From positions 1-64,000 of IMG/VR virus record IMGVR_UViG_3300016482_000025: a DNA stretch of 64,000 nt, one strand, 5' to 3'. The notes under the pieces were generated by a model. That model did not search any database. It was not told the DNA's origin and saw nothing but the letters and a program-made list of their open reading frames with translations. The DNA is from a virus. The translations under genes and the position numbers were made by a program. This document shows positions 30,191 to 63,945 of the stretch, in pieces (the first letter of the stretch is position 1; the number at the start of each line of letters is the position of its first letter).

Positions 30191-30208
30191 CCATTTTAGG
30201 ATTATATT

Positions 30209-30683: not shown

Positions 30684-30696
30684 AAGGATTTATATT

Positions 30697-31119: not shown

Positions 31120-31132
31120 TATATACAGTCAA

Positions 31133-31222: not shown

Positions 31223-31228
31223 CCAGTT

Positions 31229-31734: not shown

Positions 31735-31740
31735 GATTGA

Positions 31741-31833
31741 TGGCGTGTAGCTCAATTGGCAGAGCGGTGGCCTTATACTCCACGTATGCACTAGATTGGT
31801 GCGCGGTTGCAGGTTCAAGTCCTGCCACGCCAA
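31741..31833 (+). tRNA. tRNA with anticodon UAU (Ile AUA) and a 25-nt variable region
   Basis: Acceptor TGGCGTG/CACGCCA; D arm GCTC-AATTGGCA-GAGC; anticodon loop CTTATAC on a 4-bp stem plus a C-U mismatch; T arm GCAGG-TTCAAGT-CCTGC; CCA encoded; 93 nt. Confidence 0.6.
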
Positions 31834-31838
31834 CCATT

Positions 31839-32027
31839 ATGGAAAAGAAAATGACTATCATTTATTTCATATTAGCATTCACAATTATAAATGTTACTGA
31901 TAGTCGTAATTGGGAAGAAGGAACAGTTATTGCTCGCTCTTGTGCAGAAGCAATTTCTTATGTTCAAAATGGTTTAAGAGAAAACCAGAGATTAATTGTT
32001 GATGGGTGTATAGAATTGGCTCGATAA
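31839..32027 (+). CDS. small secreted or membrane protein (62 aa)
   Basis: Start moved to ATG 31839 because the longer ORF overlaps the tRNA; hydrophobic N-terminus. Confidence 0.4.
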   Translation: MEKKMTIIYFILAFTIINVTDSRNWEEGTVIARSCAEAISYVQNGLRENQRLIVDGCIELAR

Positions 32028-32032
32028 ATAGC

Positions 32033-32061
32033 TTGACAGAATACCCTCTTTAGTGTAGGGT
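32033..32061 (+). promoter_or_regulatory. sigma70-type promoter for sRNA candidate 32066-32188
   Basis: TTGACA, 17 nt, TAGGGT. Confidence 0.45.
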
Positions 32062-32065
32062 AACA

Positions 32066-32188
32066 TAGTAGGGACTAAGAAAGAGTAACCGAGACAACTT
32101 TCTGAATGGATAGACAAGTGTTGATGCTGGCAGCCGTTAAATGACCTTCTCAGGTCTTGCATCATCGTCCAAGTCCCTGCCTTTTTTT
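32066..32188 (+). ncRNA. about 120-nt small RNA candidate with its own promoter and a T7 run
   Basis: Promoter 32033-32061; TAGGGAC (32069-32075) pairs with GTCCCTG (32173-32179), followed by CC and TTTTTTT; no ORF. Confidence 0.4.
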
Positions 32189-32199
32189 AGGATTTAATA

Positions 32200-32325
32200 A
32201 TGTTTGATATGTTAATGGAGCAAATTCTAATTGATATTGGTGGTATTATTCTTGTTCTTATTTTAATTGGTGTTGGTATTGGTTATTTTGTAAGATCAAG
32301 GGTGAATATCAAAAAGGATTCCTGA
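32200..32325 (+). CDS. small membrane protein (41 aa)
   Basis: AGGATTTAATAATG; IGGIILVLILIGVGIGYFV. Confidence 0.4.
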   Translation: MFDMLMEQILIDIGGIILVLILIGVGIGYFVRSRVNIKKDS

Positions 32326-32460
32326 AACAGATTGAGTAGCTAACAATCATGTCAGGCAGGGGATAATTTATAAACTATAACAGGTTGCCACCCATGGAAG
32401 AGTGGTTGTAAAACGAATAATTCCTGATGTTTTTAAAAATCCCCGTAAGAATACCGCGCT

Positions 32461-32548
32461 TGGCCCGTCGCGGGATATAAGTCTTCGGGGTGAGGGTTGA
32501 CACCACAGGTCCAATCTGTTATATGTCAGCAGTAAGCTAACGGGCCAG
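32461..32548 (+). ncRNA. 88-nt tRNA-like candidate inside a 229-nt GC-rich spacer
   Basis: TGGCCCG pairs with CGGGCCA, followed by G, CCA and GTTTT exactly as after bona fide tRNAs here; an ACAG-GTCCAAT-CTGT hairpin looks like an anticodon arm but D and T arms are aberrant. Confidence 0.3.
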
Positions 32549-32566
32549 CCAGTTTTGGAGTTTGTC

Positions 32567-32935
32567 ATGGAAAATATTAGTGAATTGAATACTTCTGAGC
32601 TTAAACGTAAGTATCGTGAAGCACAAGAGCTTTCCAAGAAAATTGAACAAGAAGTAAACAAGCGTCATGAAGAAGAGCTTGTTGAAAGTAACCGTGTAAT
32701 TACAGAACAACCTATTGCTCAATTTGCAATTAAGCTTCATAATAAGTTTTGTAAGTGGAATCATACTGATGGTTGCTCTTGGCATTATGAAATGGTAAAT
32801 CGTGAGCATGATTGGTCGCGTGATGAACATCGTAGATGGATGAATAAAGCTATTAATTTGGATATGCGTCTAAAAAATGGTGTAACGATTAATAGCGAAA
32901 ACTACTTCGATATTGTTGACAAGCTGATGCCATAG
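32567..32935 (+). CDS. hypothetical protein
   Basis: Start moved to ATG 32567 after GGAG. Confidence 0.5.
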   Translation: MENISELNTSELKRKYREAQELSKKIEQEVNKRHEEELVESNRVITEQPIAQFAIKLHNKFCKWNHTDGCSWHYEMVNREHDWSRDEHRRWMNKAINLDMRLKNGVTINSENYFDIVDKLMP

Positions 32936-32944
32936 TGCTATAAG
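32916..32944 (+). promoter_or_regulatory. sigma70-type promoter for the 118-nt tRNA-like RNAs
   Basis: TTGACA, 17 nt, TATAAG; the RNA 5' end (32954) lies 9 nt downstream. Confidence 0.55.
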
Positions 32945-32953
32945 GATATACAT

Positions 32954-33071
32954 GGGGAGGGCGAGGTTAGCGGCGACGGCTGCTTTCGAGGAAGACGTTT
33001 CTCTTGCTGGTTTGGTGAAGCCTCTGGCCCTGTATGGAGCCAGGACGGGGGTTCAAGTCCCACCCTCCCCA
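32954..33071 (+). ncRNA. 118-nt tRNA-like RNA (acceptor stem plus T arm only), copy 1
   Basis: GGGGAGG/CCTCCCC 7-bp terminal helix; GGACGGGGGTTCAAGTCCCAC T arm; starts about 10 nt after the -10 box of promoter 32916-32944; no cloverleaf interior; no encoded CCA. Confidence 0.5.
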
Positions 33072-33080
33072 ACAATTTTT

Positions 33081-33198
33081 GGGTATGATGCTAGAGTGTT
33101 CGATTCACTCAAAATTCCCTTGTGGAATTTCCTGGGCGGTATAAAAGCTACGGTAACAAGGCTCGCGACCTTACTTGGTTCAATTCCAAGCATACCCA
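33081..33198 (+). ncRNA. 118-nt tRNA-like RNA (acceptor stem plus T arm only), copy 2
   Basis: GGGTATG/CATACCC 7-bp helix; T arm CTTGG-TTCAATT-CCAAG; CCA encoded; interior has a second T-arm-like hairpin GAGTG-TTCGATT-CACTC and a 7-bp hairpin AAATTCC-CTTGT-GGAATTT. Confidence 0.5.
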
Positions 33199-33220
33199 CC
33201 ATTTTTGAAGGAATTATATT

Positions 33221-33688
33221 ATGGAAAACGCGACCAAAATTTATATTGATTATTCTTCTTATACTACCGTAACAAATTCTGCCGATCCTGATGACGAATG
33301 GGATCGTGATGATACTTCAACGGATTATTACGTTAATGGTTTAACTTTAGAACCTAACGGTTCTTTTGAGTATTGTTATTATCCAGGCGAAGTGAAGGAA
33401 GGTGATAAGATTTATCTAGTTTATGCAGTCTATTCTACTGGTGATAGTTTTCATCGTGACGAAAGAGGTTGTATTGACTTTGTTGGAGTTTACAAGGATA
33501 AGGCTACTGCCGATTTAGTGGCTCATGTTCTTGAAAAGCATTCTACAGAAGATAACATGTATGGTGAAGCCAAGTGGACAGCTAAGATTGTTCTTGACAA
33601 TGGCACCGAATATGACTATCATGTTGGATGGGTTGGTTATTTTGAACACCTTGATTACATTAGTGTTGAGGAATTTATTGTTCGATGA
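33221..33688 (+). CDS. hypothetical protein
   Basis: GAAGGAATTATATTATG initiation region; 155 aa. Confidence 0.5.
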   Translation: MENATKIYIDYSSYTTVTNSADPDDEWDRDDTSTDYYVNGLTLEPNGSFEYCYYPGEVKEGDKIYLVYAVYSTGDSFHRDERGCIDFVGVYKDKATADLVAHVLEKHSTEDNMYGEAKWTAKIVLDNGTEYDYHVGWVGYFEHLDYISVEEFIVR

Positions 33689-33876
33689 ATATCATTTGGA
33701 CCGAAGAACAAGTAAAGATGTTAAATGAACGTCAGGCACGTAATGATTTACACCCATATACGTGTCCTGGTGATCATAAAGAGTGTGAAAATAATAGAGA
33801 ATTAATTGCCACAATTTATGGATGGCGTTGTGTTTGTGGTAAATACACACAAAATTGGTCACATGAAACCAGATAA
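33685..33876 (+). CDS. small Cys-containing protein
   Basis: 63-aa ORF, ATGA overlap. Confidence 0.45.
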   Translation: MNIIWTEEQVKMLNERQARNDLHPYTCPGDHKECENNRELIATIYGWRCVCGKYTQNWSHETR

Positions 33877-34109
33877 TGATGAATATATACCATTTTGCTA
33901 TTGACATTGGACAATGGGATTGTGATAATTGGGTTGCTGTTGCTGATGATATAGAAATTGCAAAAGAAAAGGTCATTCATACTTGGAAACAAAGATATGG
34001 TGGACCAATTCAAGAAAATGTTGATAGGTTTGTCAATCAGTTAAATAATGCGTCAGTAGAGATTATTGATATTGACGGTGCCGCAAATGTGTGGCAATCT
34101 TTTGATTAA
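33876..34109 (+). CDS. hypothetical protein
   Basis: 77-aa ORF. Confidence 0.45.
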   Translation: MMNIYHFAIDIGQWDCDNWVAVADDIEIAKEKVIHTWKQRYGGPIQENVDRFVNQLNNASVEIIDIDGAANVWQSFD

Positions 34110-34110
34110 C

Positions 34111-34156
34111 GGGGAAGCCGCTAAGATGGTGGATTAGCACCGGATTTCAAAACCGC
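34111..34156 (+). pseudogene. tRNA 5' half remnant with a UCA anticodon loop
   Basis: GGGGAAG-CC-GCTA-AGATGGTGGAT-TAGC-A-CCGGA-TTTCAAA-ACCGC; no T arm or 3' acceptor strand follows; the HNH gene starts 33 nt downstream. Confidence 0.4.
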
Positions 34157-34162
34157 TTTTGT

Positions 34163-34188
34163 CTAAATACTTTAAAAAAGGTGTTTAG
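34163..34188 (+). promoter_or_regulatory. hairpin abutting the HNH start codon, with late-promoter-like CTAAATAC in its 5' arm
   Basis: CTAAATAC (34163-34170) pairs with GTGTTTAG (34181-34188); ATG at 34189. Confidence 0.4.
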
Positions 34189-34614
34189 ATGAAACAAAGA
34201 CATAACAATTTTACAGATGAAGAATTAATAGAAGCATATAATGAATTAAAACATTTGGGGAAAATAGCACATAAATTTAAGGTTCCTCATATACAAATTT
34301 GGCGTAAATGTCAAAAATTAAATTTACATTTTAAAAATGGTGGTAATAACGAAAAAATTAATCTAAATGAAATTTTAGAAGGTTTTCATGGTTATTATCC
34401 AACAAATAAATTAAGAAAACGAATAATAAAAGAAAAAATATTACCTTACGAATGTGCGAAATGTGGTATTCACAAATGGAATGGTTGTGATATAGTGCTT
34501 CAATTAGATCATATAAATGGTGAATCAACAGACCATAGGTTAGAAAATTTGAGATTGTTGTGTCCTAATTGTCATTCTCAAACTGATACATGGTGTGGAA
34601 AAAATAAGGGCTAG
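34189..34614 (+). CDS. HNH homing endonuclease
   Basis: QLDHINGESTDHRLENLRLLCPNCHSQTD; low GC; paralog of the gene at 28578-29093; last 7 nt overlap tRNA-Tyr. Confidence 0.8.
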   Translation: MKQRHNNFTDEELIEAYNELKHLGKIAHKFKVPHIQIWRKCQKLNLHFKNGGNNEKINLNEILEGFHGYYPTNKLRKRIIKEKILPYECAKCGIHKWNGCDIVLQLDHINGESTDHRLENLRLLCPNCHSQTDTWCGKNKG

Positions 34615-34690
34615 TAGTCCGTTAAAGACGCGGGAGTGACTGTAAATCACTTGCTTAATTGCTGGCGTGGCGCGATACCACGATAGCCCA
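34608..34690 (+). tRNA. tRNA-Tyr (anticodon GUA), class II, non-canonical T loop
   Basis: Acceptor GGGCTAG/ATAGCCC (6 bp plus a mismatch); anticodon arm AGTGA-CTGTAAA-TCACT; T arm CGTGG-CGCGATA-CCACG lacks TTC; CCA encoded. Confidence 0.55.
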
Positions 34691-34702
34691 CCAGTTTTTA
34701 TT

Positions 34703-34948
34703 ATGGAGATAAGAATGTCTAAGACAGAAAAGCCTGTTGTCGAGAAGCAAGCCGTAGAAGTTGATTTGAAGGTTGTGGTTGTTGAAATTTTTGATAGTAG
34801 TGGAGATAATGTAATTACATTGCGTTATCCTGTTGGAAAGAATCAAGCACCAATGGTTCCGGCGTGTGTTTCTTCTATGTTACTCTCAGATAATCCGCCT
34901 GTCATCAATATTTCTGTTGACTATGTTAAGGGAATTGAGTATATATAA
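34703..34948 (+). CDS. hypothetical protein
   Basis: ATG 34703 or 34715 directly after the tRNA-Tyr trailer. Confidence 0.45.
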   Translation: MEIRMSKTEKPVVEKQAVEVDLKVVVVEIFDSSGDNVITLRYPVGKNQAPMVPACVSSMLLSDNPPVINISVDYVKGIEYI

Positions 34949-34955
34949 GGAATGC

Positions 34956-35039
34956 GCGGGTGTAGCTCAGTGGTTTAGAGCGTCGGTCTTCCAAACCGAA
35001 GGCGAATAGGTTCCGTGGGTTCGAATCCCACCATCCGCT
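34956..35039 (+). tRNA. tRNA-Gly (anticodon UCC) with a 15-nt variable region
   Basis: Acceptor GCGGGTG/CATCCGC; D arm GCTC-AGTGGTTTA-GAGC; anticodon arm TCGGT-CTTCCAA-ACCGA; T arm GTGGG-TTCGAAT-CCCAC; CCA encoded; 84 nt. Confidence 0.7.
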
Positions 35040-35048
35040 CCATTGTTT

Positions 35049-35122
35049 GTCTCTGTAGCTCAATTGTAAAGAGCGTTGGCCTACGAAGCCGAAGGTTACA
35101 GGTTAGAGTCCTGTCAGGGACT
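35049..35122 (+). tRNA. tRNA-Arg (anticodon ACG)
   Basis: Acceptor GTCTCTG/CAGGGAC; anticodon loop CTACGAA; T arm ACAGG-TTAGAGT-CCTGT; CCA encoded. Confidence 0.8.
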
Positions 35123-35134
35123 CCATTTTATTAT

Positions 35135-35207
35135 GGCGCGTTAGATTACTGGCTAGATCGTCGGGCTTTCATCCCGAAGGAAGGGGTTCGATCTCCCCTA
35201 CGCGCTA
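35135..35207 (+). tRNA. tRNA-Glu (anticodon UUC)
   Basis: Acceptor GGCGCGT/ACGCGCT (G1-U72); anticodon arm TCGGG-CTTTCAT-CCCGA; GGTTCGATC T region; CCA encoded. Confidence 0.8.
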
Positions 35208-35226
35208 CCAGTTTTGAGGATTTATA

Positions 35227-35445
35227 ATGAGAGACATTAATCAAATGAATCATCTTGAAACGCTTTTTCATATTAATGGATTTAAAATTCATGATCGTAT
35301 GAAAAGCCCGGTCGAAGAATATGATGGTGTTATTGTTACTGCTAGATATCATAAAGCTTCACGTTCAGATTATTCGTTGATTATGCAATATTTTGGTAAA
35401 GAAAATTTTGCATTCTATGAAGGTAAAAGATTTGCTGTATGGTGA
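35227..35445 (+). CDS. hypothetical protein
   Basis: GAGGATTTATAATG initiation region; the stop overlaps the tRNA-His 5' end. Confidence 0.45.
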   Translation: MRDINQMNHLETLFHINGFKIHDRMKSPVEEYDGVIVTARYHKASRSDYSLIMQYFGKENFAFYEGKRFAVW

Positions 35446-35515
35446 GTGTAGTTTAGTTGGTTAAAACGTCGGCCTGTGACTCCGAAGACCACGGGTTCAA
35501 ATCCCGTCACCCACC
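35441..35515 (+). tRNA. tRNA-His (anticodon GUG) with encoded G-1
   Basis: G-1 opposite C73; acceptor GTGAGTG/CACCCAC (one A-C mismatch); anticodon loop CTGTGAC; T arm ACGGG-TTCAAAT-CCCGT; CCA encoded. Confidence 0.8.
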
Positions 35516-35535
35516 CCATTTGAAGGAATTATATT

Positions 35536-35838
35536 ATGTTTAAGACAATTACATCAGAACAATTAGATTTGTTTTTTGAGCAACATTGTCATAATTTTCA
35601 TGGGTATGATGGGCGCGTAATTAAGAATGCCATTACTCGTGAATTTCTTATTCCTATGACAGCCAATACCGCTGTTTATACACATAATATCCTCCATGAT
35701 TATATGTCACTTTCTCTTGTTCCTGATACTTTCTTGGAACAGATGGTTGAATACCATTGTAAGATTAAACATCTTGGTTATGATATGAAAGATAATATTT
35801 CAAATAAAAATGAAACATTGAAAGCAATTTTCACATGA
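35536..35838 (+). CDS. hypothetical protein
   Basis: GAAGGAATTATATTATG initiation region. Confidence 0.5.
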   Translation: MFKTITSEQLDLFFEQHCHNFHGYDGRVIKNAITREFLIPMTANTAVYTHNILHDYMSLSLVPDTFLEQMVEYHCKIKHLGYDMKDNISNKNETLKAIFT

Positions 35839-36086
35839 CAGAAGATTCTAGACTTGCAGAGTTATACAATAACACTATAGATGAATCGCGTATTACAGAG
35901 CTATACAAAAAGTTAAAAAGTAAAAACACAACACATTTTAGCGTGACATGGGGACCGGAAGGTGTTAAGCTTACTGAGGAAGAAAAGGCTGATTATCTTC
36001 TTAAATTGATGAATGGGATTGAGGATGGAACAATTGAACATACTATCCACGCAGACTTTCCAGAGTTACCTAGAAAGCAATCTTGA
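35835..36086 (+). CDS. hypothetical protein
   Basis: 83-aa ORF, ATGA overlap. Confidence 0.45.
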   Translation: MTEDSRLAELYNNTIDESRITELYKKLKSKNTTHFSVTWGPEGVKLTEEEKADYLLKLMNGIEDGTIEHTIHADFPELPRKQS

Positions 36087-36252
36087 TAAAGAGCTTTTTG
36101 AATTACAAGAAAATATTAAGTATGTAAGAGATTTTGGTAGTGGTCCAAAAGATAGATTTTCACCAGAATATTATGATTTTGAATTACACTACCAAGATAC
36201 AATTGTTGATATTATAACCAAATATGAAAAAATGTTTATGAGGTCGTTATGA
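36013..36252 (+). CDS. hypothetical protein (start uncertain)
   Basis: Overlaps the previous ORF by 74 nt; alternative ATG at 36025. Confidence 0.3.
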   Translation: MGLRMEQLNILSTQTFQSYLESNLDKELFELQENIKYVRDFGSGPKDRFSPEYYDFELHYQDTIVDIITKYEKMFMRSL

Positions 36253-36677
36253 TTGATAAGTTTTCTGGTGAATATCGTTGGCTATCCAATTTTGTGCCTT
36301 GTCCTGTTCTCCTAGATGGTGTAGAGTATCCTTCTGTTGAACATGCTTATCAGGCAGCCAAGACAGTTATCAAGGAAGAACGTGAAATCATTCTTCAAGC
36401 AAAGACTGCCGGTATTGCCAAGAAGCTAGGTAAGCTTGTTACAATGCGCCACAATTGGGATATGTGGAAGTGGAATATTATGTTTAATCTCTGTATGCAG
36501 AAGTTTCTAAAGGAACCATTTCGTTCTCAGCTTCTAGCTACAGGTGATCAAGAAATTATTGAAGGAAATACTTGGGGTGATACTTATTGGGGTATTTGCA
36601 ATAATATTGGGCAAAATAATCTAGGTAAGATCATCATGCATATTCGTCAAACTATTCGTGATGGTGAATATCACTGA
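36249..36677 (+). CDS. NADAR (YbiA/DUF1768) domain protein
   Basis: FSGEYRWLSNFVPCPVLLDGVEYPSVEHAYQAAKT...GNTWGDTYWG is the NADAR signature. Confidence 0.75.
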   Translation: MIDKFSGEYRWLSNFVPCPVLLDGVEYPSVEHAYQAAKTVIKEEREIILQAKTAGIAKKLGKLVTMRHNWDMWKWNIMFNLCMQKFLKEPFRSQLLATGDQEIIEGNTWGDTYWGICNNIGQNNLGKIIMHIRQTIRDGEYH

Positions 36678-36690
36678 TATATAATAAAAT

Positions 36691-36764
36691 GGGCCGGTAG
36701 CTCAGTTGGCTAGAGCGGGAGACTCTTAATCTCTAGGTCGTGGGTTCGAATCCCACCCGGCCCT
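36691..36764 (+). tRNA. tRNA-Lys (anticodon CUU)
   Basis: Acceptor GGGCCGG/CCGGCCC; anticodon loop CTCTTAA; T arm GTGGG-TTCGAAT-CCCAC; no encoded CCA. Confidence 0.85.
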
Positions 36765-36771
36765 CATAGAG

Positions 36772-36822
36772 CCTAGAAGTTATAAATAGCAATGGCAATA
36801 AGACTAATTTATAACTTCTAGG
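36772..36822 (+). promoter_or_regulatory. 16-bp perfect hairpin sequestering the endonuclease RBS, with TATAAATA in its 5' arm
   Basis: CCTAGAAGTTATAAAT (36772-36787) pairs with ATTTATAACTTCTAGG (36807-36822); TATAAATA at 36781-36788; AGGA at 36820-36823; TTG start at 36830. Confidence 0.6.
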
Positions 36823-36829
36823 ATTAATT

Positions 36830-37444
36830 TTGTATTACACAATCTATAAAATAACAAATAAAATTAACAATAAATTCTATATTGGAATGCATAAAACCAA
36901 AAATTTAAATGATGGTTATATGGGTTCTGGTAAACTCTTGAAACGTGCTATTAAAAAACACGGAATTGAAAACTTTATTAAAGAAATTCTATTCATTTTT
37001 GATAATGAACAGGATATGATTAATAAAGAAAAAGAATTAGTAGAAGTATCAGAGCAATCTTATAACCTTTGTGAAGGTGGTAAAGGTGGTTTTGGTTTTA
37101 TAAATGCTAATGGTCTTGGTGGAACACTTGGTTATAAATGGAGTGATTATTATAAAAATCATTTTAGAAAAAAAGCACAAGAACAATATGAAAAATGGAC
37201 TGATGAAGATTGGAATAATCATTCTTCACAAATAAAAAATGGAATAATAAACCGTAAACCATCATTTCTTGGTAAAAAACACACAGAAGAAACCAAACAA
37301 AAAATGAGAAAATCTAAAAATATTGGTATAAAAAATCCAAGTTTTGGTTCTATGTGGATTACTAATGGAATAGATAACAGGAAGATAAAAAAACTTGAAA
37401 CCATTCCTGATGGGTGGTATAAAGGAAGAAATAAGGGGTCTTAG
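36830..37444 (+). CDS. GIY-YIG homing endonuclease
   Basis: YYTIYKITNKINNKFYIGMHKT...GYMGSG; NUMOD3-like GKKHTEETKQKM; low GC; the last 10 nt overlap tRNA-Ala. Confidence 0.8.
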   Translation: MYYTIYKITNKINNKFYIGMHKTKNLNDGYMGSGKLLKRAIKKHGIENFIKEILFIFDNEQDMINKEKELVEVSEQSYNLCEGGKGGFGFINANGLGGTLGYKWSDYYKNHFRKKAQEQYEKWTDEDWNNHSSQIKNGIINRKPSFLGKKHTEETKQKMRKSKNIGIKNPSFGSMWITNGIDNRKIKKLETIPDGWYKGRNKGS

Positions 37445-37507
37445 CTCAGATGGGAGAGCGGTAGCTTTGCAAGCTATAGGTCATCGGTTCGATCCCGATA
37501 GGCTCCA
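37435..37507 (+). tRNA. tRNA-Ala (anticodon UGC)
   Basis: Acceptor GGGGTCT/AGGCTCC with G3-U70; anticodon loop TTTGCAA; T arm ATCGG-TTCGATC-CCGAT; CCA encoded. Confidence 0.85.
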
Positions 37508-37525
37508 CCAGTTTAGGATTATATT

Positions 37526-42113: not shown

Positions 42114-42764
42114 ATGTTTTACATAGTATATAAAACTACAAATTTAATAAACCATAAAATTTATATTGGAACACATAAAACTAAAGATTTAAATGATGAT
42201 TATCTAGGATCGGGTGTTTTTTTAAAAAAAGCTATTAAAAAATATGGTAAAAACAACTTTAAAAAAGAAATAATAGCAGTATTTGACAACGCAGAAGACA
42301 TGATGAAAGAAGAAAGAAAAATAGTTAATAAAAATTTTATTCTTCGTAAAGACACATACAATTATGAATTAGGTGGTAAAGGTGGTAAGATATGGACTGA
42401 TGATTTGAGACAAAAAATGTCTGAATCAAAGAAAGGACATATACCGTGGAATAAAGGTTTAAAAACTGGAAATTTTATGACAGAAGAAGAAAAACAAAAA
42501 AGAAGTCAAAAAATGTCTGGTAAAAATAATCATATGTTTGGTATAAACGTTTCTTCTATTATCGATGAAGAAAAAGATAAAGAGCGAAGACGCAAAATTA
42601 GCGAATCGAATAAAAAACCCAAAACAAAAACAGACGGTTATAAAAAATATGCATCTAATCGTTTTTGGATAGTTGACATAGAAGGAAATTTATGTCATGC
42701 TTGTTCAGAAAATGATGAACGTCTTGTTTCAGGAAAATTTAAAAGAGGAAGAAAATGGAAGTAA
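42114..42764 (+). CDS. GIY-YIG homing endonuclease
   Basis: FYIVYKTTNLINHKIYIGTHKT...DYLGSG; NUMOD3-like repeats; low GC. Confidence 0.8.
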   Translation: MFYIVYKTTNLINHKIYIGTHKTKDLNDDYLGSGVFLKKAIKKYGKNNFKKEIIAVFDNAEDMMKEERKIVNKNFILRKDTYNYELGGKGGKIWTDDLRQKMSESKKGHIPWNKGLKTGNFMTEEEKQKRSQKMSGKNNHMFGINVSSIIDEEKDKERRRKISESNKKPKTKTDGYKKYASNRFWIVDIEGNLCHACSENDERLVSGKFKRGRKWK

Positions 42765-43607: not shown

Positions 43608-44183
43608 CTATTTTTTATTATGAGGCTTCCATGCTTTTCTTCCTCTGATCCATCCTTCTAAAATTTTATTATGAAATTCTTCTGTTTCTGAATTATATTG
43701 TTTAGATATAGAAAAATCAGGGGAAGTAAGCCATACTAAATTTTTCTTTTTATCTCTAAGTTTTTGTCTATATTCTTCCGTTACATTAATAATACGTTTT
43801 TTATATCTTTCTTTATAAATTTCTGTATTATTAATGTAATGTTCTTTAATTGATTTTGATATTTTTTGTTTTGTTTCAGAAGATAACACAATTCCTTTTC
43901 TTAAGGAACCACCTTTACCACCTTGACATATGTTATATGTTGTTGATAAATTACAGAAGTCTTCATTGACTAATTCTTTTTCTTTATTAATCATATCTTG
44001 TTCATTATCAAATATAAACAATATTTCTTTAGTGAAATTATGAATACCATATTTTTTTATAGCACGCTTTAACATATTACCAGAACCAAGATATTCATCT
44101 TGGAGATTATTAGTCTTATGCATACCCACATAAATTTTTGAGTTGACTAAACATGTGGTTTGGTATATGGTATAATAAGTCAT
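43608..44183 (-). CDS. GIY-YIG homing endonuclease
   Basis: YYTIYQTTCLVNSKIYVGMHKT...EYLGSG; shares a near-identical block KEILFIFDNEQDMINKEKELV with the gene at 36830-37444; low GC; CTAAATAC at 44212-44219 on the minus strand. Confidence 0.8.
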   Translation of the reverse strand: MTYYTIYQTTCLVNSKIYVGMHKTNNLQDEYLGSGNMLKRAIKKYGIHNFTKEILFIFDNEQDMINKEKELVNEDFCNLSTTYNICQGGKGGSLRKGIVLSSETKQKISKSIKEHYINNTEIYKERYKKRIINVTEEYRQKLRDKKKNLVWLTSPDFSISKQYNSETEEFHNKILEGWIRGRKAWKPHNKK

Positions 44184-48335: not shown

Positions 48336-48433
48336 ATAAATATATAGATAACCATTCGGGATAGGGAACGGTGGCTGAATTGGATTTTTGGCTGCATCCA
48401 ATCTATAAATAATACAATTATAGAGGTTTATAG

Positions 48434-49273
48434 ATGAAGACTTTTGCTGATTTTGCCATGCGGAAATTAAACGCAGTCAAATATAAAATACCGGCTGTTG
48501 TTATTACTCATGGCGCACATGCCAATAGACAAGAAATACCTAATTTATACATTCAACATGGCTCCCATTCAGAAGGAAGTCTTAGAGAAGAATATGAAAC
48601 ATTTAGAAGTTTTGAAAGAGGTAAGCACCCTAACCAACATTTAGGTGCAGCTATTTCAGAAGCCGGTATGCATTTGGAAGACCTTCATGCTGACGTGAAA
48701 ATGTCAAACAATGAAATTAGAGCCATTCGTCAATACACAAATACTTCATATGGTTTGAATAGCTCTTTACATCAACACAATGGCGATCTTTCAAGAATTG
48801 CTATTGAACACCAAGACCAAGTAAAATATCTGGATAGTGCAATTAAGAAACATACACTCCCAAAGATGATTTTATTGTCTGGTATTAAAAAAGACCCTAG
48901 AGAACTTACAGAAAATACAAACGGTGTTTTAAAGTCACCAGCTTATGTTTCTACAACAATTCATCCTAGCATCGCTTATTTCTTTGCAAATGATGTGCAC
49001 AGCAAGTATAATGCCGATCCTAAACAACCAGAACAACATATTCTTAAAATCCATGTAAATGAAGGTGAACATGGATTGTATGTTGGGAACAGAAACGTAG
49101 GTTTTAGAAAACTAACCAATTCAACAGAACATGAGGTTCTTCTTCCAAGGGATCATCATTTTAAAATCACAGGAAAAACTACCTATGATGACGCTGGATC
49201 ATTGGTGCATGTCTGGAATACTCATATAATTCCAAGAAAAGAAAATCCTTATACATGGAAGCCAGGAAGATAA
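48434..49273 (+). CDS. Alt-like ADP-ribosyltransferase paralog 1
   Basis: IRQYTNTSYGLNSSL, PAYVSTTI and EHEVLLPR parallel T4 Alt IASYTGSGYRDINDYL, FVSTSL and EAEVILPR; N-terminus MKTFADFAM; IPNLYIQHGSH at aa 35-45. Confidence 0.75.
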   Translation: MKTFADFAMRKLNAVKYKIPAVVITHGAHANRQEIPNLYIQHGSHSEGSLREEYETFRSFERGKHPNQHLGAAISEAGMHLEDLHADVKMSNNEIRAIRQYTNTSYGLNSSLHQHNGDLSRIAIEHQDQVKYLDSAIKKHTLPKMILLSGIKKDPRELTENTNGVLKSPAYVSTTIHPSIAYFFANDVHSKYNADPKQPEQHILKIHVNEGEHGLYVGNRNVGFRKLTNSTEHEVLLPRDHHFKITGKTTYDDAGSLVHVWNTHIIPRKENPYTWKPGR

Positions 49274-49274
49274 A

Positions 49275-50006
49275 ATGTCATTCCTTGATAGATTTAAATC
49301 AACACCAACACCCATTCAATATACAGCAAAGAAACATTATACCAATTTTCTTTATCATAATGCCAATGATCATATTGGTAAAGAAATTTGGGACGTAGAT
49401 AAGAAGCTAAGGGAACATCATCCTTTCGGTCAACTACACGCCAATGAACGTGGTGCGCTTCAATCATACTCAATTGGTTCTTCTGCCTTATCCGATGAAT
49501 TGTTACAAAGCCATAAAGCAAATAGAGAACCAAAACAGAAAGTTGGATATGTGCATCTACCATCCTTGGATAATGCTACAACAAAATTTACTGTTCCTAA
49601 GATGACTGTTTTTTCTGGTGTAAAATTTGATCCGGGTGCCACAACAAAACACTCAAACGGAATCATGTATTCACCATCGTTTATTTCTTCTTCAATTGAT
49701 CCTTCTGTAGCAGATGAATTTGCTGCAACCACAGGTAATGCACACATCATGAGAATACATCTTCATGAAGGACACCCAGGATTATATCTTGGAAATGATC
49801 TAAATAGATCAGCAATGCCTTCCGAGCATGAATTGTTGCTGCCTAGAGGAATTCATTTTAAGATTAATCCAACACCTACTGTGTTTTCACATAATAGTCC
49901 TACAGCTACTAAGCATGTTTGGGATGCTCATGTTATACCAAAGGGTGTAGATATTCACACTTGGCAACCACCAAAAACACCATCCAGAGATTTTACTAAG
50001 GGATAA
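49275..50006 (+). CDS. Alt-like ADP-ribosyltransferase paralog 2
   Basis: LQSYSIGSSALSDEL, PSFISSSI and EHELLLPR; N-terminus MSFLDRFKS; HGSH motif degenerate. Confidence 0.7.
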   Translation: MSFLDRFKSTPTPIQYTAKKHYTNFLYHNANDHIGKEIWDVDKKLREHHPFGQLHANERGALQSYSIGSSALSDELLQSHKANREPKQKVGYVHLPSLDNATTKFTVPKMTVFSGVKFDPGATTKHSNGIMYSPSFISSSIDPSVADEFAATTGNAHIMRIHLHEGHPGLYLGNDLNRSAMPSEHELLLPRGIHFKINPTPTVFSHNSPTATKHVWDAHVIPKGVDIHTWQPPKTPSRDFTKG

Positions 50007-50009
50007 AAA

Positions 50010-52529
50010 ATGAAAAAGTTTAGAGATTTTGTTAGTAAGGTTATTCCAAATCTTTACATTCAACATGGAAGTCATGCATTCCCTAAGAATGACAAAGACC
50101 TTCCAAACGTCTATATTCCCCATGGAAGTCATTCTATACCTCCAAATGACAAAGACCTTCCAAACGTCTATATTCAACATGGAAGTCATGCATTCCCTAA
50201 GAATGACAAAGACCTTCCAAACGTCTATATTCCCCATGGAAGTCATTCTATACCTCCAAAAAAGGTTTCAGAATCAACAGCGGTTGGTGGTATTCACGTA
50301 ACTTTGAAAGAAGAAAAGTTATTTGAATCAATTGCAAACTCTGATGAAATTCATAAAATTCTGGATGGTCATGATAGTTACCAAAAAGAAATTGCATTTT
50401 CAAGCCCACATGTAACACCAGAACATATTCATAAAGCTTTGGATGATGAAAATGAATATGTGCGTGCGTCAGCTATTTCTCACCCAAAAGCAAGTCATGA
50501 AAATATTTCTAAAGCTTTGGATGATGAATCATTCTATATTCGTCGCAGAGCTATTCGTCACGAAAATGTAACACCAGAGCATCTTGATAAAGCAATTCAA
50601 AGGGATAATCCAGAAGACCTTAGAGAAGTAGCTATGAGTCCAAAGGTGCAATCTCACCATCTTGATAAATTATTAGATCATCCAGAAACTTATGTGTCTT
50701 CAAGAGCAGCATCAAGCCCAAACATTCAACCACATCACATTGACAAAATTCTAGATGGAAACAACCATTCCGCTAAAAATTCTGTTCTTCTAAGTGATAA
50801 GCTAACAACAAATCATATTCATAAAATTCTTGATGGTGATGATACAGACGCCAAATCTAGAGTATTGATGAATCCAAATGTCAAAACAGAACATATTGAC
50901 AAAGCCATTAATGATCCTTCTTCTCATGTAAGAAAAAGAGCTATTGTTTCTCCTGCCGCACAATCACACCACATTGACAAAGCATTAAAAGATGAAGATT
51001 GGGGTGTAAGAACAGCAGCATTACAAAGTGATCATCTTCAATCACATCACATTGATGAAATTTTAAGTAATAAATTAAATAGTGTATCTAACTCATCAAA
51101 TGCAATGAGCGTTCTACACCATCCGAATGTTCAACCACATCATTTGGATATGGCATTAAACCATGATGATTGGAGAGTAAGAAGAGAAGTATTTTCTTAT
51201 TACAAAACACCAGTTACACCAGACCATATTACAAAGGGATTGGATGATACACGTCCAGAAGTTAGAGCAGCGGCAGCAGGACACTCAGCGGCAACAGACG
51301 CCCATCTTGACAAAGCTCTAGATGATGGTAATGAACATGTTGTTCATGCAGCAACATCAAATCCAAATCTAAAACCACATCATCTTGATAAAGCAGTTAT
51401 GTCAAGTTATGGTTCTGGTTTAGATCATCTTTCAAATAATAATAATCTTCAACCACATCATATTGATCATATTCTACAACATGGTTCATATGATGCAAAG
51501 TATAATGCTCTACAACATAAAAACTTTACATCAGAACATATCACAAAAGCTTTCAATAATCCAGAAACAGGTAGTGGAACACTTGGAGATATTTTGTCTT
51601 GGCATAAAGACAAAATTACACCAGAACACGTTACAACATTATTGAATCATCCTAATGCTGATAGTTGGGCAAAAGAAAAGGCTCTTTCTTCAAGAGGCGC
51701 AACAAGTGATCATATTCATCAAATATTAGATGATCCAAACGCACACGATTTACACGCCCACGTTGTAAATTACAGTGATAAGTTTGGGAAAGAACATCTT
51801 GACAAAGTTATGAATGGTAACTATAAAGATTGGGTTAAAGAATCTGCAAATAAGAAAGTATTCTTTATGCATGATAACACCCATTTAGGTGATTCTGTTG
51901 GTGATGTTGGAAAACATCTTCAAGAAAGACAAGAAACACATGGGAAAATTCCAATCAGTAAAATTCCAGATGAACACAAATATGCAATTAAAAATTACAC
52001 AGATGGTTCATATGGAATCAATAGTCATTTGATTCATGACGGTCATGATGAAGAAGCTGTAAAGAATGGTCCATATGCAAACCAAGTTAAAAACATGGAT
52101 GCTGCCATTGATTCACACCCTCTACCAAAAATGACTGTGTATTCAGGTATTAAGTTTCATCCACATCAAAAAACAACACCAGATGGTTTATTAAAAACAA
52201 CAGCATATATTTCAACATCAATCAATCCTCAAACATCACATGGATTTACAAGTGATGTATCTCATGGTGGTGAACGTGCAAAACACATTCTTAGAATTCA
52301 CGTTCCAGAAGGACACCCAGGATTCTTTACCGGTAATGACAATGAATTTACAAACCATAATGAACATGAAGTAATTCTTCCAAGAAACACTCGATATAAA
52401 ATTTCTGATGCACCATCAAAATCTTATGCAGATGGATATGGAGATAAAATTCATATGTGGGATACACACATTGTTCCACAACATGTAGAAAATTCTCATG
52501 AATGGGAACCACCAAAGGTTGAGAAATAA
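50010..52529 (+). CDS. Alt-like ADP-ribosyltransferase paralog 3 with four HGSH motifs and a helical-repeat central domain
   Basis: 839 aa; MKKFRDFVSKV then 4 x PN(L/V)YI(Q/P)HGSH; about 19 repeats of about 26 aa; C-terminal IKNYTDGSYGINSHL, AYISTSI and EHEVILPR (52362-52385). Confidence 0.75.
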   Translation: MKKFRDFVSKVIPNLYIQHGSHAFPKNDKDLPNVYIPHGSHSIPPNDKDLPNVYIQHGSHAFPKNDKDLPNVYIPHGSHSIPPKKVSESTAVGGIHVTLKEEKLFESIANSDEIHKILDGHDSYQKEIAFSSPHVTPEHIHKALDDENEYVRASAISHPKASHENISKALDDESFYIRRRAIRHENVTPEHLDKAIQRDNPEDLREVAMSPKVQSHHLDKLLDHPETYVSSRAASSPNIQPHHIDKILDGNNHSAKNSVLLSDKLTTNHIHKILDGDDTDAKSRVLMNPNVKTEHIDKAINDPSSHVRKRAIVSPAAQSHHIDKALKDEDWGVRTAALQSDHLQSHHIDEILSNKLNSVSNSSNAMSVLHHPNVQPHHLDMALNHDDWRVRREVFSYYKTPVTPDHITKGLDDTRPEVRAAAAGHSAATDAHLDKALDDGNEHVVHAATSNPNLKPHHLDKAVMSSYGSGLDHLSNNNNLQPHHIDHILQHGSYDAKYNALQHKNFTSEHITKAFNNPETGSGTLGDILSWHKDKITPEHVTTLLNHPNADSWAKEKALSSRGATSDHIHQILDDPNAHDLHAHVVNYSDKFGKEHLDKVMNGNYKDWVKESANKKVFFMHDNTHLGDSVGDVGKHLQERQETHGKIPISKIPDEHKYAIKNYTDGSYGINSHLIHDGHDEEAVKNGPYANQVKNMDAAIDSHPLPKMTVYSGIKFHPHQKTTPDGLLKTTAYISTSINPQTSHGFTSDVSHGGERAKHILRIHVPEGHPGFFTGNDNEFTNHNEHEVILPRNTRYKISDAPSKSYADGYGDKIHMWDTHIVPQHVENSHEWEPPKVEK
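50061..50262 (+). repeat. 114-bp in-frame tandem direct repeat (about 1.8 copies, exact)
   Basis: Sequence from 50061 recurs identically from 50175; each unit encodes two 19-aa sub-repeats. Confidence 0.9.
50341..51830 (+). repeat. about 19 degenerate coding repeats (about 26-33 aa) of LRV/HEAT-like helical type
   Basis: Recurring xPxVxxEH(I/L)(D/H)KALDDxxxxVRxxAxxxP; counted from 19 H(I/L)xK(A/I)L cores. Confidence 0.7.
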
Positions 52530-53386
52530 TGAAAAGTTTTAAATCATATCTTAAAGCCATGCCTTGGGTTATACCAAATTTGTATATCCAGCATGGCTCA
52601 CACGCCTTCACAGAGGAAGATAAGCAAGAGACGCAAGCGGTTCAAGGGGTATCACAAGTTACCACAGAAGCCTTAAAACCAAAAGTATATAACTTAAATC
52701 ATGATTATTACATGATTAATCATAATTCACATCTTGGTCCTACCATTGATGATGTTGGTAATCATCTTCATGCTTTGCAAGATCAAAAAGAATCAATTCA
52801 TGATATGCCAGAACATGAAAAAAAGGCTGTATTGTCATACGCAGAAAGCTCAAAGGATATTAACAAAGCTTTAATTCATCATGAAGATTTTAATAAAGCA
52901 CATGAAGAAGTAAAACAACATATAAACCTTGAACATTTTGATAGTGCTGTAAATAAACATACTCTACCAAAGATGGTTCTTCATTCTGGTGTTGGTTGGA
53001 ATCCAAGAAAAGAATCAGCAATGTCCAATGGTGTTTTTAGAACATCAGCATATACTTCATCTTCAATTGATTCAGGAACAGCAGACTTTTTTGCTAAAGC
53101 CCATTGGGATCATAAGCTTGGTGATTTTGAAAGACATGTTCTGAGAATTCATGTGCCGGAAGGTCATAAAGGATTGTTTGTTGGAAATGAATATAACGGC
53201 AGCCCATTAACTCATATGGCAGAACATGAGGTTATTCTTCCTCGTAATACAACCTATAAACTAGCTCGTAGCACACCTTCTGCGACTTACTATAAGAGTG
53301 GTGATAGCGTTGCTACACATGTTTGGGATGCTCATATTGTTCCACATGAGGAAGACCCCCATACATGGACACCCCCTAAAAAGTAA
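52529..53386 (+). CDS. Alt-like ADP-ribosyltransferase paralog 4
   Basis: VLSYAESSKDINKAL, SAYTSSSI and EHEVILPR; N-terminus MKSFKSYLKAM; IPNLYIQHGSH at aa 15-25. Confidence 0.75.
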   Translation: MKSFKSYLKAMPWVIPNLYIQHGSHAFTEEDKQETQAVQGVSQVTTEALKPKVYNLNHDYYMINHNSHLGPTIDDVGNHLHALQDQKESIHDMPEHEKKAVLSYAESSKDINKALIHHEDFNKAHEEVKQHINLEHFDSAVNKHTLPKMVLHSGVGWNPRKESAMSNGVFRTSAYTSSSIDSGTADFFAKAHWDHKLGDFERHVLRIHVPEGHKGLFVGNEYNGSPLTHMAEHEVILPRNTTYKLARSTPSATYYKSGDSVATHVWDAHIVPHEEDPHTWTPPKK

Positions 53387-53405
53387 AAGGCCCATTCGGG
53401 CCTTT
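53386..53405. terminator. bidirectional terminator hairpin between convergent genes
   Basis: AAAGGCCC-ATTC-GGGCCTTT. Confidence 0.6.
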
Positions 53406-53722: not shown

Positions 53723-54424
53723 TTATTCTCCTAATAATTTATTCCTTCTCTCTGAGAAATTCTTAAATAATTCTTCATGATTAGAAAGGCCACTGTTTTT
53801 AAATAATCCTTGAACATGATTCATATCCATGTTCCTTACTGCTTCAAGACCATGTTTTTCAGCACCGGGATTTTGTTGAAACACAGTTTTAAATACATGA
53901 GTAGAAGCATTTTCTGGTCTAGAAATTAACGAATGTTTTTCATCAATATCAGGACCATAATCCTTATGTCCACCTTGGGCACGAAAATGGAAAGCACCAC
54001 CAGAGTCAACAGAGTGTAATTCACCTGTCTCTTTATGGCGCTCAATGTTATCATGTTCCAAACCAACAATATCCCAATTCTTGGTTAGAATAGCTGCATG
54101 ATACATTTTACCAATCGTATGTTGTTGATCAGTATTCAAATGAGCAAAATCAGAAGGATGCATTCTTTCTAATTTGTCATTCCAAGGTGTAACAACAGAA
54201 TGCTTACCATTTACCACAGAATAAGACGGTTGTAAAGTCTTAATTCCCATGTGTTCGTGAATTTTTCCTGTTAAATCTTCAACCTTGGCTTGATCAGCAT
54301 TTTGGTAATGTTTAACATAAAACTTTTTACCTGATTCACTGTCAACATGAACGCCGCCCGGATTAGAACCTAGACGGTCGCCCATTTTTTGTAATTCTTC
54401 TTGTAATTGTTTAAATGATTTCAT
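53723..54424 (-). CDS. atypical kinase-like protein with capsid-targeting-like N-terminus
   Basis: MKSFKQLQEEL; LGSNPGGVHVDSESGKKFYVKHY (Gly-rich loop plus Lys); TKNWDIVGLEHDNI (catalytic-loop-like D..N); SVDSGGAF (DFG-like). Confidence 0.45.
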   Translation of the reverse strand: MKSFKQLQEELQKMGDRLGSNPGGVHVDSESGKKFYVKHYQNADQAKVEDLTGKIHEHMGIKTLQPSYSVVNGKHSVVTPWNDKLERMHPSDFAHLNTDQQHTIGKMYHAAILTKNWDIVGLEHDNIERHKETGELHSVDSGGAFHFRAQGGHKDYGPDIDEKHSLISRPENASTHVFKTVFQQNPGAEKHGLEAVRNMDMNHVQGLFKNSGLSNHEELFKNFSERRNKLLGE

Positions 54425-62577: not shown

Positions 62578-63909
62578 TTACATTAGGTTTGAAACCAATA
62601 CTCTACGATAGAACACGTTTGAGTTTTGTTCTAGTGTAGCGTTTGAGTCAGCTTCGGTTGCACCCTTGGCGAATGGATTTGGTGCCATGCCGTAACGTGT
62701 CTTGAAGCCGATACGTGGTTGGAAGTTATCTTCACCAACCGCACGAACCATTTGTAGTGGAACGTATGGGCAGTAGAATAGACCAGCATCGAATGCGCTT
62801 GCACCCTTATATCCAACAGTCATGTAGTTACCTGATGTTGCATATGGATCAATGTAAACACGCATACGACCGTTTAGAACACCGGCAAAGGTATTGCCTG
62901 TATCGTCAACTTGTAGGTTGTTTGAATTTAGAGCGGGAGCGTAGTCTAGAACACCAGCCATTTGAAGAGCAGAAGCTACGTCAGATGAACAGATTAGAAT
63001 GTTACCCTTACCTCTACGTGTATCACGTGCGATTTGGTTAGATTCACGTTCGATCTGGAACATTAGACCCTTAAACTTTTCAACCATCCAACGTCCGTTT
63101 GAATCAACGTCAAGGTCGAATGTGCCTTGTGTTGTAACGTTTGTGTTAGCACCACGGACAGCAGTTAGGTTAACAGTTCTTACGATTTCACGGTTGATTT
63201 CAGCCATGATTTCAGTTGAAAGAATGTTGGCTAGCTCTGTTTCAGCATCTAGACCATGGATAGCCTTCAAGTCTTGTGCTAGTTCTAGAGTGTATTCAGC
63301 CTTTAGTGCACGTGCCTTAGCAGTTACAGTGACCTTTTCGATTGAGAAAGCCATTTCGTTGAAGGCAGTATTACCAGAGGCACCTAGTTGTTCTGACTTA
63401 GCAGTAGATGTTCCACCACCGAAGTTGAATGTTTCTGAGTTACCTGTTGGTGCACCAGCGTTACCAACGTTACCATTGGCTAGACCAAGGTTTGTGTTAG
63501 CAGCGCCAAAGTAAGCAGAACCAGAGAAACCAGTGTTGGCTTCGTTGTAGAAGGCTTCTGTTCCTGATTGGTTGCCATAACGTGAGCGCATTGCGAAGAT
63601 CAAGCCTGTTGGGCCTGTCATTGGCTGCACACCACAAATGTCATAAGCAATTAGGTTAGGTGCTGTTCTACGGACTAGGCTGATAAGAACGGGATCGTAG
63701 TTATCAATGTTTGAGCCGGTTTGGTTAGCAGGAACACCAGCTTCCAAAAGAGAAGTAGGAGCATAGCCGCGTGTTTCGCGAAGAGCTTTCTCTGTGTTCT
63801 CCAATAGAACGGCGGTTACACCGCGACGATGTGAGTCAGCAATCTTTGGTAGAGCTTCATGCTCTAGGATTGGCTTCCACTTGTTTAATACTTCTTCATT
63901 TAGATACAT
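62578..63909 (-). CDS. gp23: major capsid protein gp23
   Basis: LNKWKPILE, VRRTAPNLIAYDICGVQPM, LAQDLKAIHGLDAE, FQPRIGFKTRYG and FYRRVLV blocks are collinear with T4 gp23. Confidence 0.97.
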   Translation of the reverse strand: MYLNEEVLNKWKPILEHEALPKIADSHRRGVTAVLLENTEKALRETRGYAPTSLLEAGVPANQTGSNIDNYDPVLISLVRRTAPNLIAYDICGVQPMTGPTGLIFAMRSRYGNQSGTEAFYNEANTGFSGSAYFGAANTNLGLANGNVGNAGAPTGNSETFNFGGGTSTAKSEQLGASGNTAFNEMAFSIEKVTVTAKARALKAEYTLELAQDLKAIHGLDAETELANILSTEIMAEINREIVRTVNLTAVRGANTNVTTQGTFDLDVDSNGRWMVEKFKGLMFQIERESNQIARDTRRGKGNILICSSDVASALQMAGVLDYAPALNSNNLQVDDTGNTFAGVLNGRMRVYIDPYATSGNYMTVGYKGASAFDAGLFYCPYVPLQMVRAVGEDNFQPRIGFKTRYGMAPNPFAKGATEADSNATLEQNSNVFYRRVLVSNLM

Positions 63910-63937: not shown

Positions 63938-63945
63938 TATTTATA
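63938..63945 (-). promoter_or_regulatory. T4-type late promoter upstream of gp23
   Basis: Minus strand TATAAATA, with 28 nt between the motif and the ATG; AAGGAG RBS between them. Confidence 0.65.

Follow-up and report, generated by a model that had tools for sequence, protein, structure and literature searches.

The window analysed here, 64,000 nucleotides of DNA that make up positions 1 to 64,000 of the IMG/VR virus record IMGVR_UViG_3300016482_000025, encodes four tandem ADP-ribosyltransferases (ARTs; paralogs 1 to 4), three of which carry near their N-termini a conserved peptide of 12 residues, hereafter called the tag. As far as its sequence can tell, the tag is without a described relative and is part of no known capsid-targeting sequence (CTS), and the propeptide that surrounds it appears to be of the T4 CTS type. 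The reading we favour, held tentatively and at a little less than an even chance, is that the tag is an added, repeatable docking unit in a T4-type propeptide, which would act during assembly of the prohead core and would then be cut off by the S77 prohead protease. This reading accounts for the position of the tag, the leader in front of it, the coupling to a candidate cut site, the late-promoter-like box, the portability to cargo other than ARTs and the variable copy number.

The tag was sought with the DNA pattern CCN AAY NTN TAY ATH CMN CAY GGN WSN CAY, the degenerate back-translation of P-N-x-Y-I-[QP]-H-G-S-H, which has 7 matches in the window versus 0.00 expected (100 shuffles). Six of these lie in three of the four ART genes and the seventh in an unrelated open reading frame (ORF) for a protein of 121 amino acids (aa), where the match (8505-8534) covers residues 8-17. 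The core tag is the 12-residue peptide I-P-N-[LVM]-Y-I-x-H-G-S-H-[SA], and the full form of the consensus is [DE]-[IL]-P-N-[LVM]-Y-[IV]-x-H-G-S-H-[SA]. Among the 17 canonical copies found in the window and in related contigs, Y5, G9 and H11 are invariant, P2, N3, I6, H8 and S10 change solely in two degenerate copies of one orthologue (locus L002), and position 7 is the least conserved (Q in 13 copies, P in 2, E in 1 and D in 1). Paralog 1 has one canonical copy, IPNLYIQHGSHS (48536-48571, + strand, aa 35-46), paralog 3 has four copies of 12 codons each with a period of 57 nucleotides (nt) (50043-50078, 50100-50135, 50157-50192 and 50214-50249, together 50043-50249, + strand), and paralog 4 has one, IPNLYIQHGSHA (52571-52606, + strand, aa 15-26). 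An earlier note on this DNA had placed IPNLYIQHGSH at aa 35-45 of paralog 1 (48536-48568) and aa 15-25 of paralog 4 (52571-52603), with four copies in paralog 3; these positions are right, with the four copies starting at 50043, 50100, 50157 and 50214, and the three codon strings it quoted are exact. Its span of 48539-52603 holds six real copies but overlooks the seventh, which lies outside it at 8502-8537. The peptide AVVITHGAH (paralog 1 aa 21-29) does precede the canonical copy, as it stated, but is not merely a degenerate version of it: it belongs to a second subtype, IPAVVITHGAHA (48488-48523, + strand, paralog 1 aa 19-30), that occurs twice in the distant homologue P0005 (34% identity) as the variant IPAVT[KN]VVHGTHA. 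Whether it comes from the window or from loci L001-L005, L007 and L012, every copy falls within the first 80 residues of its protein, and the copy number ranges from 1 to 4, with 4, 3 and 3 copies in paralog 3 and its orthologues (3 each in L003 and L002).

The conservation of the tag is best explained at the protein level. On six related metagenomic contigs the orthologues retain the peptide with their synonymous sites scrambled, and across the 17 copies serine is encoded by both TCN and AGT and glycine by four codons. Over the 21-codon block PWVIPNLYIQHGSHAFTEEDK, paralog 4 and its 63%-identical orthologue differ by 11 synonymous changes and 0 replacements, and this block is the best-conserved 20-residue window of paralog 4, ahead of the catalytic core. 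Since synonymous changes occur without replacement and codon use is mixed, the peptide rather than the DNA is conserved, and the proposal that selection acts on the peptide is borne out. A DNA- or RNA-level element was rejected because the copies differ at most synonymous sites, and on the same grounds gene conversion was rejected as the source of the conservation, except within paralog 3. The copies of paralog 3 arose by a recent tandem duplication of DNA (period of 57 nt; a unit of 114 nt matching at 96%), so they give no independent evidence of selection and count as one observation in total. The homologues that keep the tag are P0001 (88% identity), P0002 (63%), P0003 (48%, two copies) and P0008 (three copies); homologues of the tagged proteins were found solely in raw metagenome assemblies.

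The tag is rare. A profile of it run against 1.84 billion representative proteins recovered three ART clusters, the family of the 121-aa protein and the protein P0011, that is, this lineage only. The other 18 profile matches (P0009-P0026, with strings such as LYIPHGSDE, FISHMVQMK and LYPTWFRWK) were rejected as relatives, as they are three frames of a DNA direct-repeat array; the array is CRISPR-like and these public "proteins" are mis-called ORFs. Two motif patterns gave 0 matches in IMG/VR, and motif searches gave 0 matches in the JGI metagenome contigs and in 185,579 species (cellular) genomes. There was no match by tblastn of paralog 4 against 50,697 phage records, by megablast of the locus or by a word-index protein search with the repeat region only. 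Pfam, PHROGs and NCBIfam contain no family over the tag region, phmmer against the PDB with the tag region returned nothing better than E>0.4, and the tag string occurs in 0 papers of the full-text literature. The pattern check against phage sequences that the earlier note had called for thus yielded nothing outside the lineage in IMG/VR, the JGI contigs or the phage records, and its statement that the motif belongs to no described family agrees with the Pfam, PHROG, NCBIfam, PDB and literature searches, which place the tag in no known domain.

The lineage that carries the tag is one rare group of uncultured T4-like phages. Identity is about 42% between the gp46 homologue of the phage and its counterparts in cyanophages, Cr30 and phiM12, and 72.7% between the capsid proteins of the phage and of Stenotrophomonas phage DLP6; judged by these identities, the window is from a distant, uncultured T4-like myovirus. 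A protein identical to one in the window is present on a 162-kb contig, and our genome scan covered about 104 of these 162 kb (the window, L006, L008, L010 and L011). The head module lies just past the right end of the window (locus L006) and consists, in this order, of the portal, a gp67-like protein of 53 aa, two proteins of 108 and 289 aa with canonical T4-like targeting leaders (MKSFKQFITE and MKTYKQLVSE, respectively), an 81-aa protein, the S77 prohead protease (gp21 family), the gp22 scaffold (L006 8964-9962) and the gp23 capsid protein. The protease and scaffold assignments are backed by PF03420 and PF25623 on L006, PHROG 207 (6.6e-76) and PHROG 237 (5.7e-70). The gp23-type major capsid protein (62578-63909, - strand) has an SLLE/AG processing site (here and below a slash marks the cut position) and an TATAAATA box at 63938-63945; in our own alignment ...TSLLE/AGVPAN stands at the position of L-T-E/A, which we take to be the T4 capsid-protein site. 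The tag is absent from the capsid, scaffold, protease and portal proteins and from the canonical-CTS proteins of the same phage, and no further copies were found in the scanned part of the genome.

In front of the tag stands a leader that resembles the T4 CTS. The tagged ARTs start with M-K-x-F-x-x-[FY] (MKTFADF, MKKFRDF and MKSFKSY), and the broader form M-K-x-[FY]4-x-x-[FYL]7 is present in paralogs 1, 3 and 4 and in all tagged orthologues, and not in the 121-aa protein. Positions 1, 2, 4 and 7 of these leaders fit T4, and the [LIV]-x-E at positions 8-10 is lost. Within the scanned 104 kb the pattern M-[KR]-[KSTD]-[FY]-x-x-[FYL] heads six ORFs only, namely three ARTs, a 233-aa neighbour and two head-module proteins; elsewhere it has one internal chance match, in a gp15-like ORF. 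The 233-aa neighbour (53723-54424, - strand) begins MKSFKQLQE/E, a canonical CTS-like leader and site with no tag, keeps its place next to the ART genes in L001, L003 and L004 (73-97% identity) and matches no family; from its leader it is likely to be another packaged protein.

Behind the tag stands a candidate site for the prohead protease. The first [LIV]-x-E after the last tag comes at +4 in paralog 1 (LRE, 48581-48589, + strand, aa 50-52, 4 residues past the tag), at +6 in paralog 3 (VSE, 50265-50273, + strand, aa 86-88, with LKE next at 50304-50312, + strand), at +5 in P0003 (LKE), at +7 in P0005 (VKE) and at +6 in P0011 (LTE), and in the orthologues of paralog 3 at +9 and +25; cleavage at these sites is predicted from the motif. 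In 5/6 lineages such a site falls within +9, for which shuffling the local 40 residues gives a chance of about 6e-4. The general layout is the leader, a spacer of 0-8 residues, the tag and a spacer repeated 1-4 times, [LIV]-x-E and then the cargo, so the tag does sit between a targeting-like leader and the first L-x-E site, as had been reported, with the site read as [LIV]-x-E in those 5/6 lineages.

The timing expected of the tagged genes points the same way. A box like that of T4 late promoters, TATAAATA (48404-48411, + strand), stands 22 nt before the ATG of ART paralog 1, and the same phage has it ahead of the capsid gene (by 28 nt) and of the sheath gene (by 26 nt); its distance to the first ART gene is 22-25 nt in the relatives L001 and L005, and that to the P0011 ORF is 39 nt. 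Counted over all its occurrences, the TATAAATA 8-mer is no more frequent than expected by chance, so the late-promoter argument rests on position. From this position before ART, capsid and sheath genes, the ART operon is probably late, as expected of head cargo. In the mechanism we favour, the ART operon would be transcribed late and each tagged protein would be headed by a T4-type capsid-targeting leader (M-K-x-F-x-x-F/Y) that has lost its own cleavage residues 8-10. With its 1-4 copies the tag would provide additional strands that dock on the prohead core, at an avidity that rises with copy number, and the S77 prohead protease would then cut at [LIV]-x-E a few residues past the last tag, freeing the mature enzyme in the head for injection.

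The same cassette is found on cargo that is not an ART. P0011 (locus L007; about 110 aa; downstream of a PhoH-like gene) has the leader MLSFQKYMKY, two tags and KKLTE/E, followed by 51 unrelated residues, its N-terminus reading MLSFQKYMKYHK MKKKDTDDAG-TPVYIQHGSHA-HKNNSLG-TPVYIQHGSHA-HKKKKLTE/E; this architecture gives the same order of leader, tag and site on a non-ART protein. The ART L002_243, at the position of paralog 4, has a plain cleavable leader (MLKSFKKLLAE/A) and no tag. The tag is, judged from these N-termini, a modular element, present in three ART lineages and in the unrelated P0011.

The second non-ART protein is the 121-aa protein (8484-8849, + strand; start MSGDDDIPNVYIQHGSHS), which has the tag at aa 7-18 (8502-8537) and no CTS-like leader. 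Its orthologue P0007 is 57% identical overall and 19/20 over the first 20 residues. PHROGs, NCBIfam and Pfam searches gave it no family match, and its AlphaFold model is of low confidence, ferredoxin-like and with no PDB match. When L012 380-860 is compared with window 8090-8560, DNA identity is about 93% over the 91-aa gene that precedes this ORF and over its first 20 codons; between the two phages the remainder of the 121-aa protein falls to 57% aa identity, and the change comes abruptly just behind the tag. The 121-aa ORF belongs to a two-gene operon (8209-8849), in front of which lies TTGACG-16 nt-TATAAATG (8159-8188, + strand), kept in L012 as TTGAC[GA]-16 nt-TATAAATG; it is sigma70-like, yet a single mismatch separates it from the late box, and it stands at the usual distance. 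A perfect sigma70 promoter with a TG (TTGACA-17-TATAAT) is found at 7783-7811 (+ strand), a divergent promoter pair occupies 8117-8188, at a switch of strand and GC skew, and the promoters of 7783-8188 are probably the start of two early transcription units.

Several observations weigh against the docking reading. The 121-aa protein carries the tag without a leader or a conserved [LIV]-x-E (its VVE lies in a predicted strand and is QVT in the orthologue), which shows, as far as its gene can be read, that the tag is not simply an appendage of the leader, and it would fit the reading only if the tag targets by itself. Its gene stands behind a sigma70-like promoter in an early-looking gene block, an objection softened by the T4 ip genes, which are likewise among early genes and tRNAs. 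The description of the tag as a propeptide element gains support from its context (S77 protease, gp22 scaffold, leaders, TATAAATA box and [LIV]-x-E) and suits this leaderless protein less well. The sixth lineage, the paralog 4 group, has no canonical [LIV]-x-E near the tag, just an FTE/E (FTE at 52607-52615, + strand, paralog 4 aa 27-29) that is invariant in three orthologues and is a possible, predicted non-canonical protease site. Eight invariant positions in 12 exceed the need of most docking peptides, and the packaging, cleavage and docking function are inferred, the first two from T4. We think it unlikely, though well short of remote, that the tag is instead an autonomous transferable signal distinct from the T4 CTS, being either a second capsid-loading or ejection tag that works without a leader, as on the 121-aa protein, or an ART-silencing propeptide strand re-used on a separately expressed small protein to switch off the phage's own injected toxins, a "propeptide mimic" regulator.

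The structural models add a further point against docking on the core and bring in a different role. The AlphaFold model of paralog 4, built on an alignment of 9 sequences, has a predicted local distance difference test (pLDDT) of 77 and a predicted template modelling score (pTM) of 0.80. Its N-terminal 50 residues are disordered save residues 13-25, where pLDDT is at least 50; the block 11-20 averages 74, and N17 forms a beta-bridge. The model suggests that the tag of paralog 4 packs on the ART domain and not on a core protein, which the docking reading leaves unexplained. The tag could thus give zymogen control, docking in cis on the ART domain and holding the enzyme inactive or packaging-competent until prohead cleavage arms it, and the 121-aa protein would bind mature ARTs in trans, for example to switch off injected ARTs. 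We regard this as unlikely overall, though it has specific points in its favour: besides being the sole ordered island of that N-terminal region, the tag has the cut site directly after it and its block exceeds the catalytic core in conservation, the 121-aa protein bears the tag with no leader or site and is left by AlphaFold with its tag disordered and undocked on its own body, and Ali et al. (PMC5694885) raise "controlling its activity" as a possible role of the T4 Alt propeptides. It is opposed by P0011, a non-ART cargo that bears two copies, by the 3-4 tandem copies, which would be pointless for a single binding site, by paralog 2 and L002_243, which are ARTs of the same family without the tag, and by the small alignment behind the paralog 4 model.

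The promoter of the 121-aa gene and the degree of conservation can also be read as signs of a role in the host. The tag would then be retained on the mature proteins and bind a host or early-phage hub at the start of infection, so that the injected ARTs (among them the multivalent paralog 3) would be recruited, along with the 121-aa early protein, to one shared target. That a tagged protein stands behind a sigma70-like promoter kept in a relative, that tandem copies suit avidity for an oligomeric target and that the tag is conserved beyond most assembly signals are all consistent with it. Yet we think it doubtful, as the steady [LIV]-x-E past the tag together with the T4-type protease predict that the tag is removed from the cargo, and on late-promoter genes the tag always comes with a CTS-like leader. 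As no similar peptide was found in the cellular genomes searched or in known phages, nothing suggests host mimicry.

It is very improbable that the prohead protease or some other protease cuts within the tag, say behind its Gln as in ENLYFQ/S of tobacco etch virus (TEV), or that the tag is a His metal-binding unit (H-G-S-H). The only points we would bring for it are what we take to be a superficial likeness of N-L-Y-I-Q to N-L-Y-F-Q and an H-x-x-H pair with Tyr. Conservation is lowest at what would be P1 (Q, P, E or D), the obligatorily processed capsid, scaffold, portal and core proteins are without the motif, and no second protease was seen in the scanned part of the genome. A 3C/NIa-type site with cleavage after Gln was rejected because position 7 is Q in just 13/17 copies, and the suggestion of a new processing site does not hold up well, as the putative P1 varies and capsid, scaffold, protease and portal have no motif. 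The hydrophobic strand followed by H-G-[ST] recalls what we take to be the first signature of the H-Y-E ARTs (PARP, diphtheria toxin); homology to it was rejected, since the tag can come in several copies, falls in a disordered region and is also borne by proteins that are not ARTs.

The four ART genes are arranged head-to-tail on the + strand and all match PF03496 (ADP-ribosyltransferase exoenzyme) with 42.9-63.4 bits versus a cutoff of 23.4. Paralog 1 (48434-49273, 279 aa; PF03496 2.3e-17) runs from the leader MKTFADFAMRK through the subtype-2 tag, the canonical tag and LRE to the ART domain. Paralog 2 (49275-50006, 243 aa) has the leader MSFLDRFK and no tag, and the tag is absent from its orthologues P0004 and L001_248 too; its N-terminus was rejected as a degenerate tag because TNFLYHNANDH aligns with the N-x-N-x-H-L-G start of the ART domain in all paralogs. 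Paralog 3 (50010-52529, 839 aa) has the leader MKKFRDFVSKV, four tags, VSE/LKE, HEAT-like repeats and the ART domain, and paralog 4 (52529-53386, 285 aa) the leader MKSFKSYLKAM, one tag, FTE/E and the ART domain. A G+C-rich hairpin (53386-53405) closes the operon between convergent genes. The HEAT-like repeats of paralog 3 (about aa 100-630; 50300-51900; Pfam HEAT 3.9e-9) are some 500 His-rich residues (..xHHIDKxL..) between the tags and the ART domain, and are probably a target-recognition scaffold.

The ARTs match PHROG 802 "Alt-like" weakly, and the AlphaFold model of the ART matches VIP2, C3 and CDTa at about 4e-9, a C3-like fold. The catalytic Arg of the R-S-ExE triad is absent in 9/9 aligned ARTs, which have [LFHY]-S-G opposite Y-R-R-S-G of CDTa; S-[ST]-S and E-x-E are kept. 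By this alignment the ART activity, substrate chemistry or specificity may be unusual. All four ARTs also share a C-terminal tail, H-[IV]-[IV]-P-x(3-4)-[DN]-x-[HY]-x-W-x-P-[PG]-[KR] (49200-49273, 49930-50006, 52460-52529 and 53320-53386), modelled with good confidence by AlphaFold.

Elsewhere, 13 tRNA genes are clustered on the + strand (window 28510-37510). Paralogous ORFs with GIY-YIG-like N-termini (..IYIGKT.. / ..IYVGMHKT..) lie at 18458-19165, 20566-21222 (- strand), 36887-37444, 42114-42764 and 43608-44183 (- strand) and, judged from their translations, are probably homing endonucleases. In the same phage genome a Gad2-like protein (PF26128) is encoded at L011 14487-15071, and two radical SAM enzymes stand beside tail and neck genes at L010 1206-2522 and 3416-4858.

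How proteins are chosen for loading into T4-type heads is only partly understood, and we know of no receptor for the 10-residue T4 CTS in the scaffolding core. The tag, with its eight invariant positions, its capacity to be repeated and to move between cargos and its place between leader and cut site, would lend itself better than the degenerate CTS to a search for the binding partner, and could serve in engineering protein delivery by phage heads; should its docking surface prove to be the ART domain, a toxin injected by a phage would here be under zymogen-style control. Among known systems, encapsulin cargo-loading peptides are likewise short conserved peptides sufficient to load diverse cargo into an HK97-fold shell; unlike the tag, they are usually C-terminal, uncleaved and bind the shell protein directly, and there is no sequence similarity.

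A further comparison is with the ejection proteins of giant phages (SPN3US gp53 and gp54, phiKZ gp93), whose diverged paralogs keep identical N-termini upstream of protease sites (PMC5694885). Their sequence and their protease motif (A-x-E) are different, and their N-termini are neither a short repeatable unit nor found on unrelated cargo. T4 Alt is an ART made late, loaded in the head and injected, as we propose for the tagged ARTs; the prohead protease trims it at ITE-6 and LTE-619, and whether its propeptides serve targeting, tethering or activity control is an open question (PMC5694885). Unlike T4, with one 682-aa protein, this phage has four small paralogs with a much longer, motif-bearing N-terminal propeptide, without a tblastn match to cultured-phage ARTs and with the catalytic Arg missing.

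The closest likeness is to the CTS of T4 IPI, IPII and IPIII, which is N-terminal, occurs on diverse injected cargo, has the form M-K-x-[FY]-x-x-F and is removed by the gp21-type protease at [LI]-x-E (PMC9026906; PMC3012670). In the T4 CTS, encapsidation is governed by residues 4 and 7, and processing by residues 8 and 10 (PMC9026906, section 2.6); leaders that precede a tag here are without the processing residues at positions 8-10. The T4 propeptides contain nothing resembling I-P-N-L-Y-I-x-H-G-S-H, while the spacer here is a conserved 12-residue unit in 1-4 copies that is also found leaderless on the 121-aa protein. Because T4 IPI, IPII and IPIII and the canonical-CTS proteins of the same phage are without the tag, it is, on this comparison, an addition to the CTS and not the CTS itself. 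As read from NC_000866, IPII and IPIII start MKTYQEFIAE/A and IPI starts MKTFKEFTSTTTPVSTITE/A (MKTFKEF). With its 19-residue leader, spacer and I-T-E, IPI is the T4 precedent for leader, spacer and site, and the tagged proteins have the same layout, with the tag filling the spacer.

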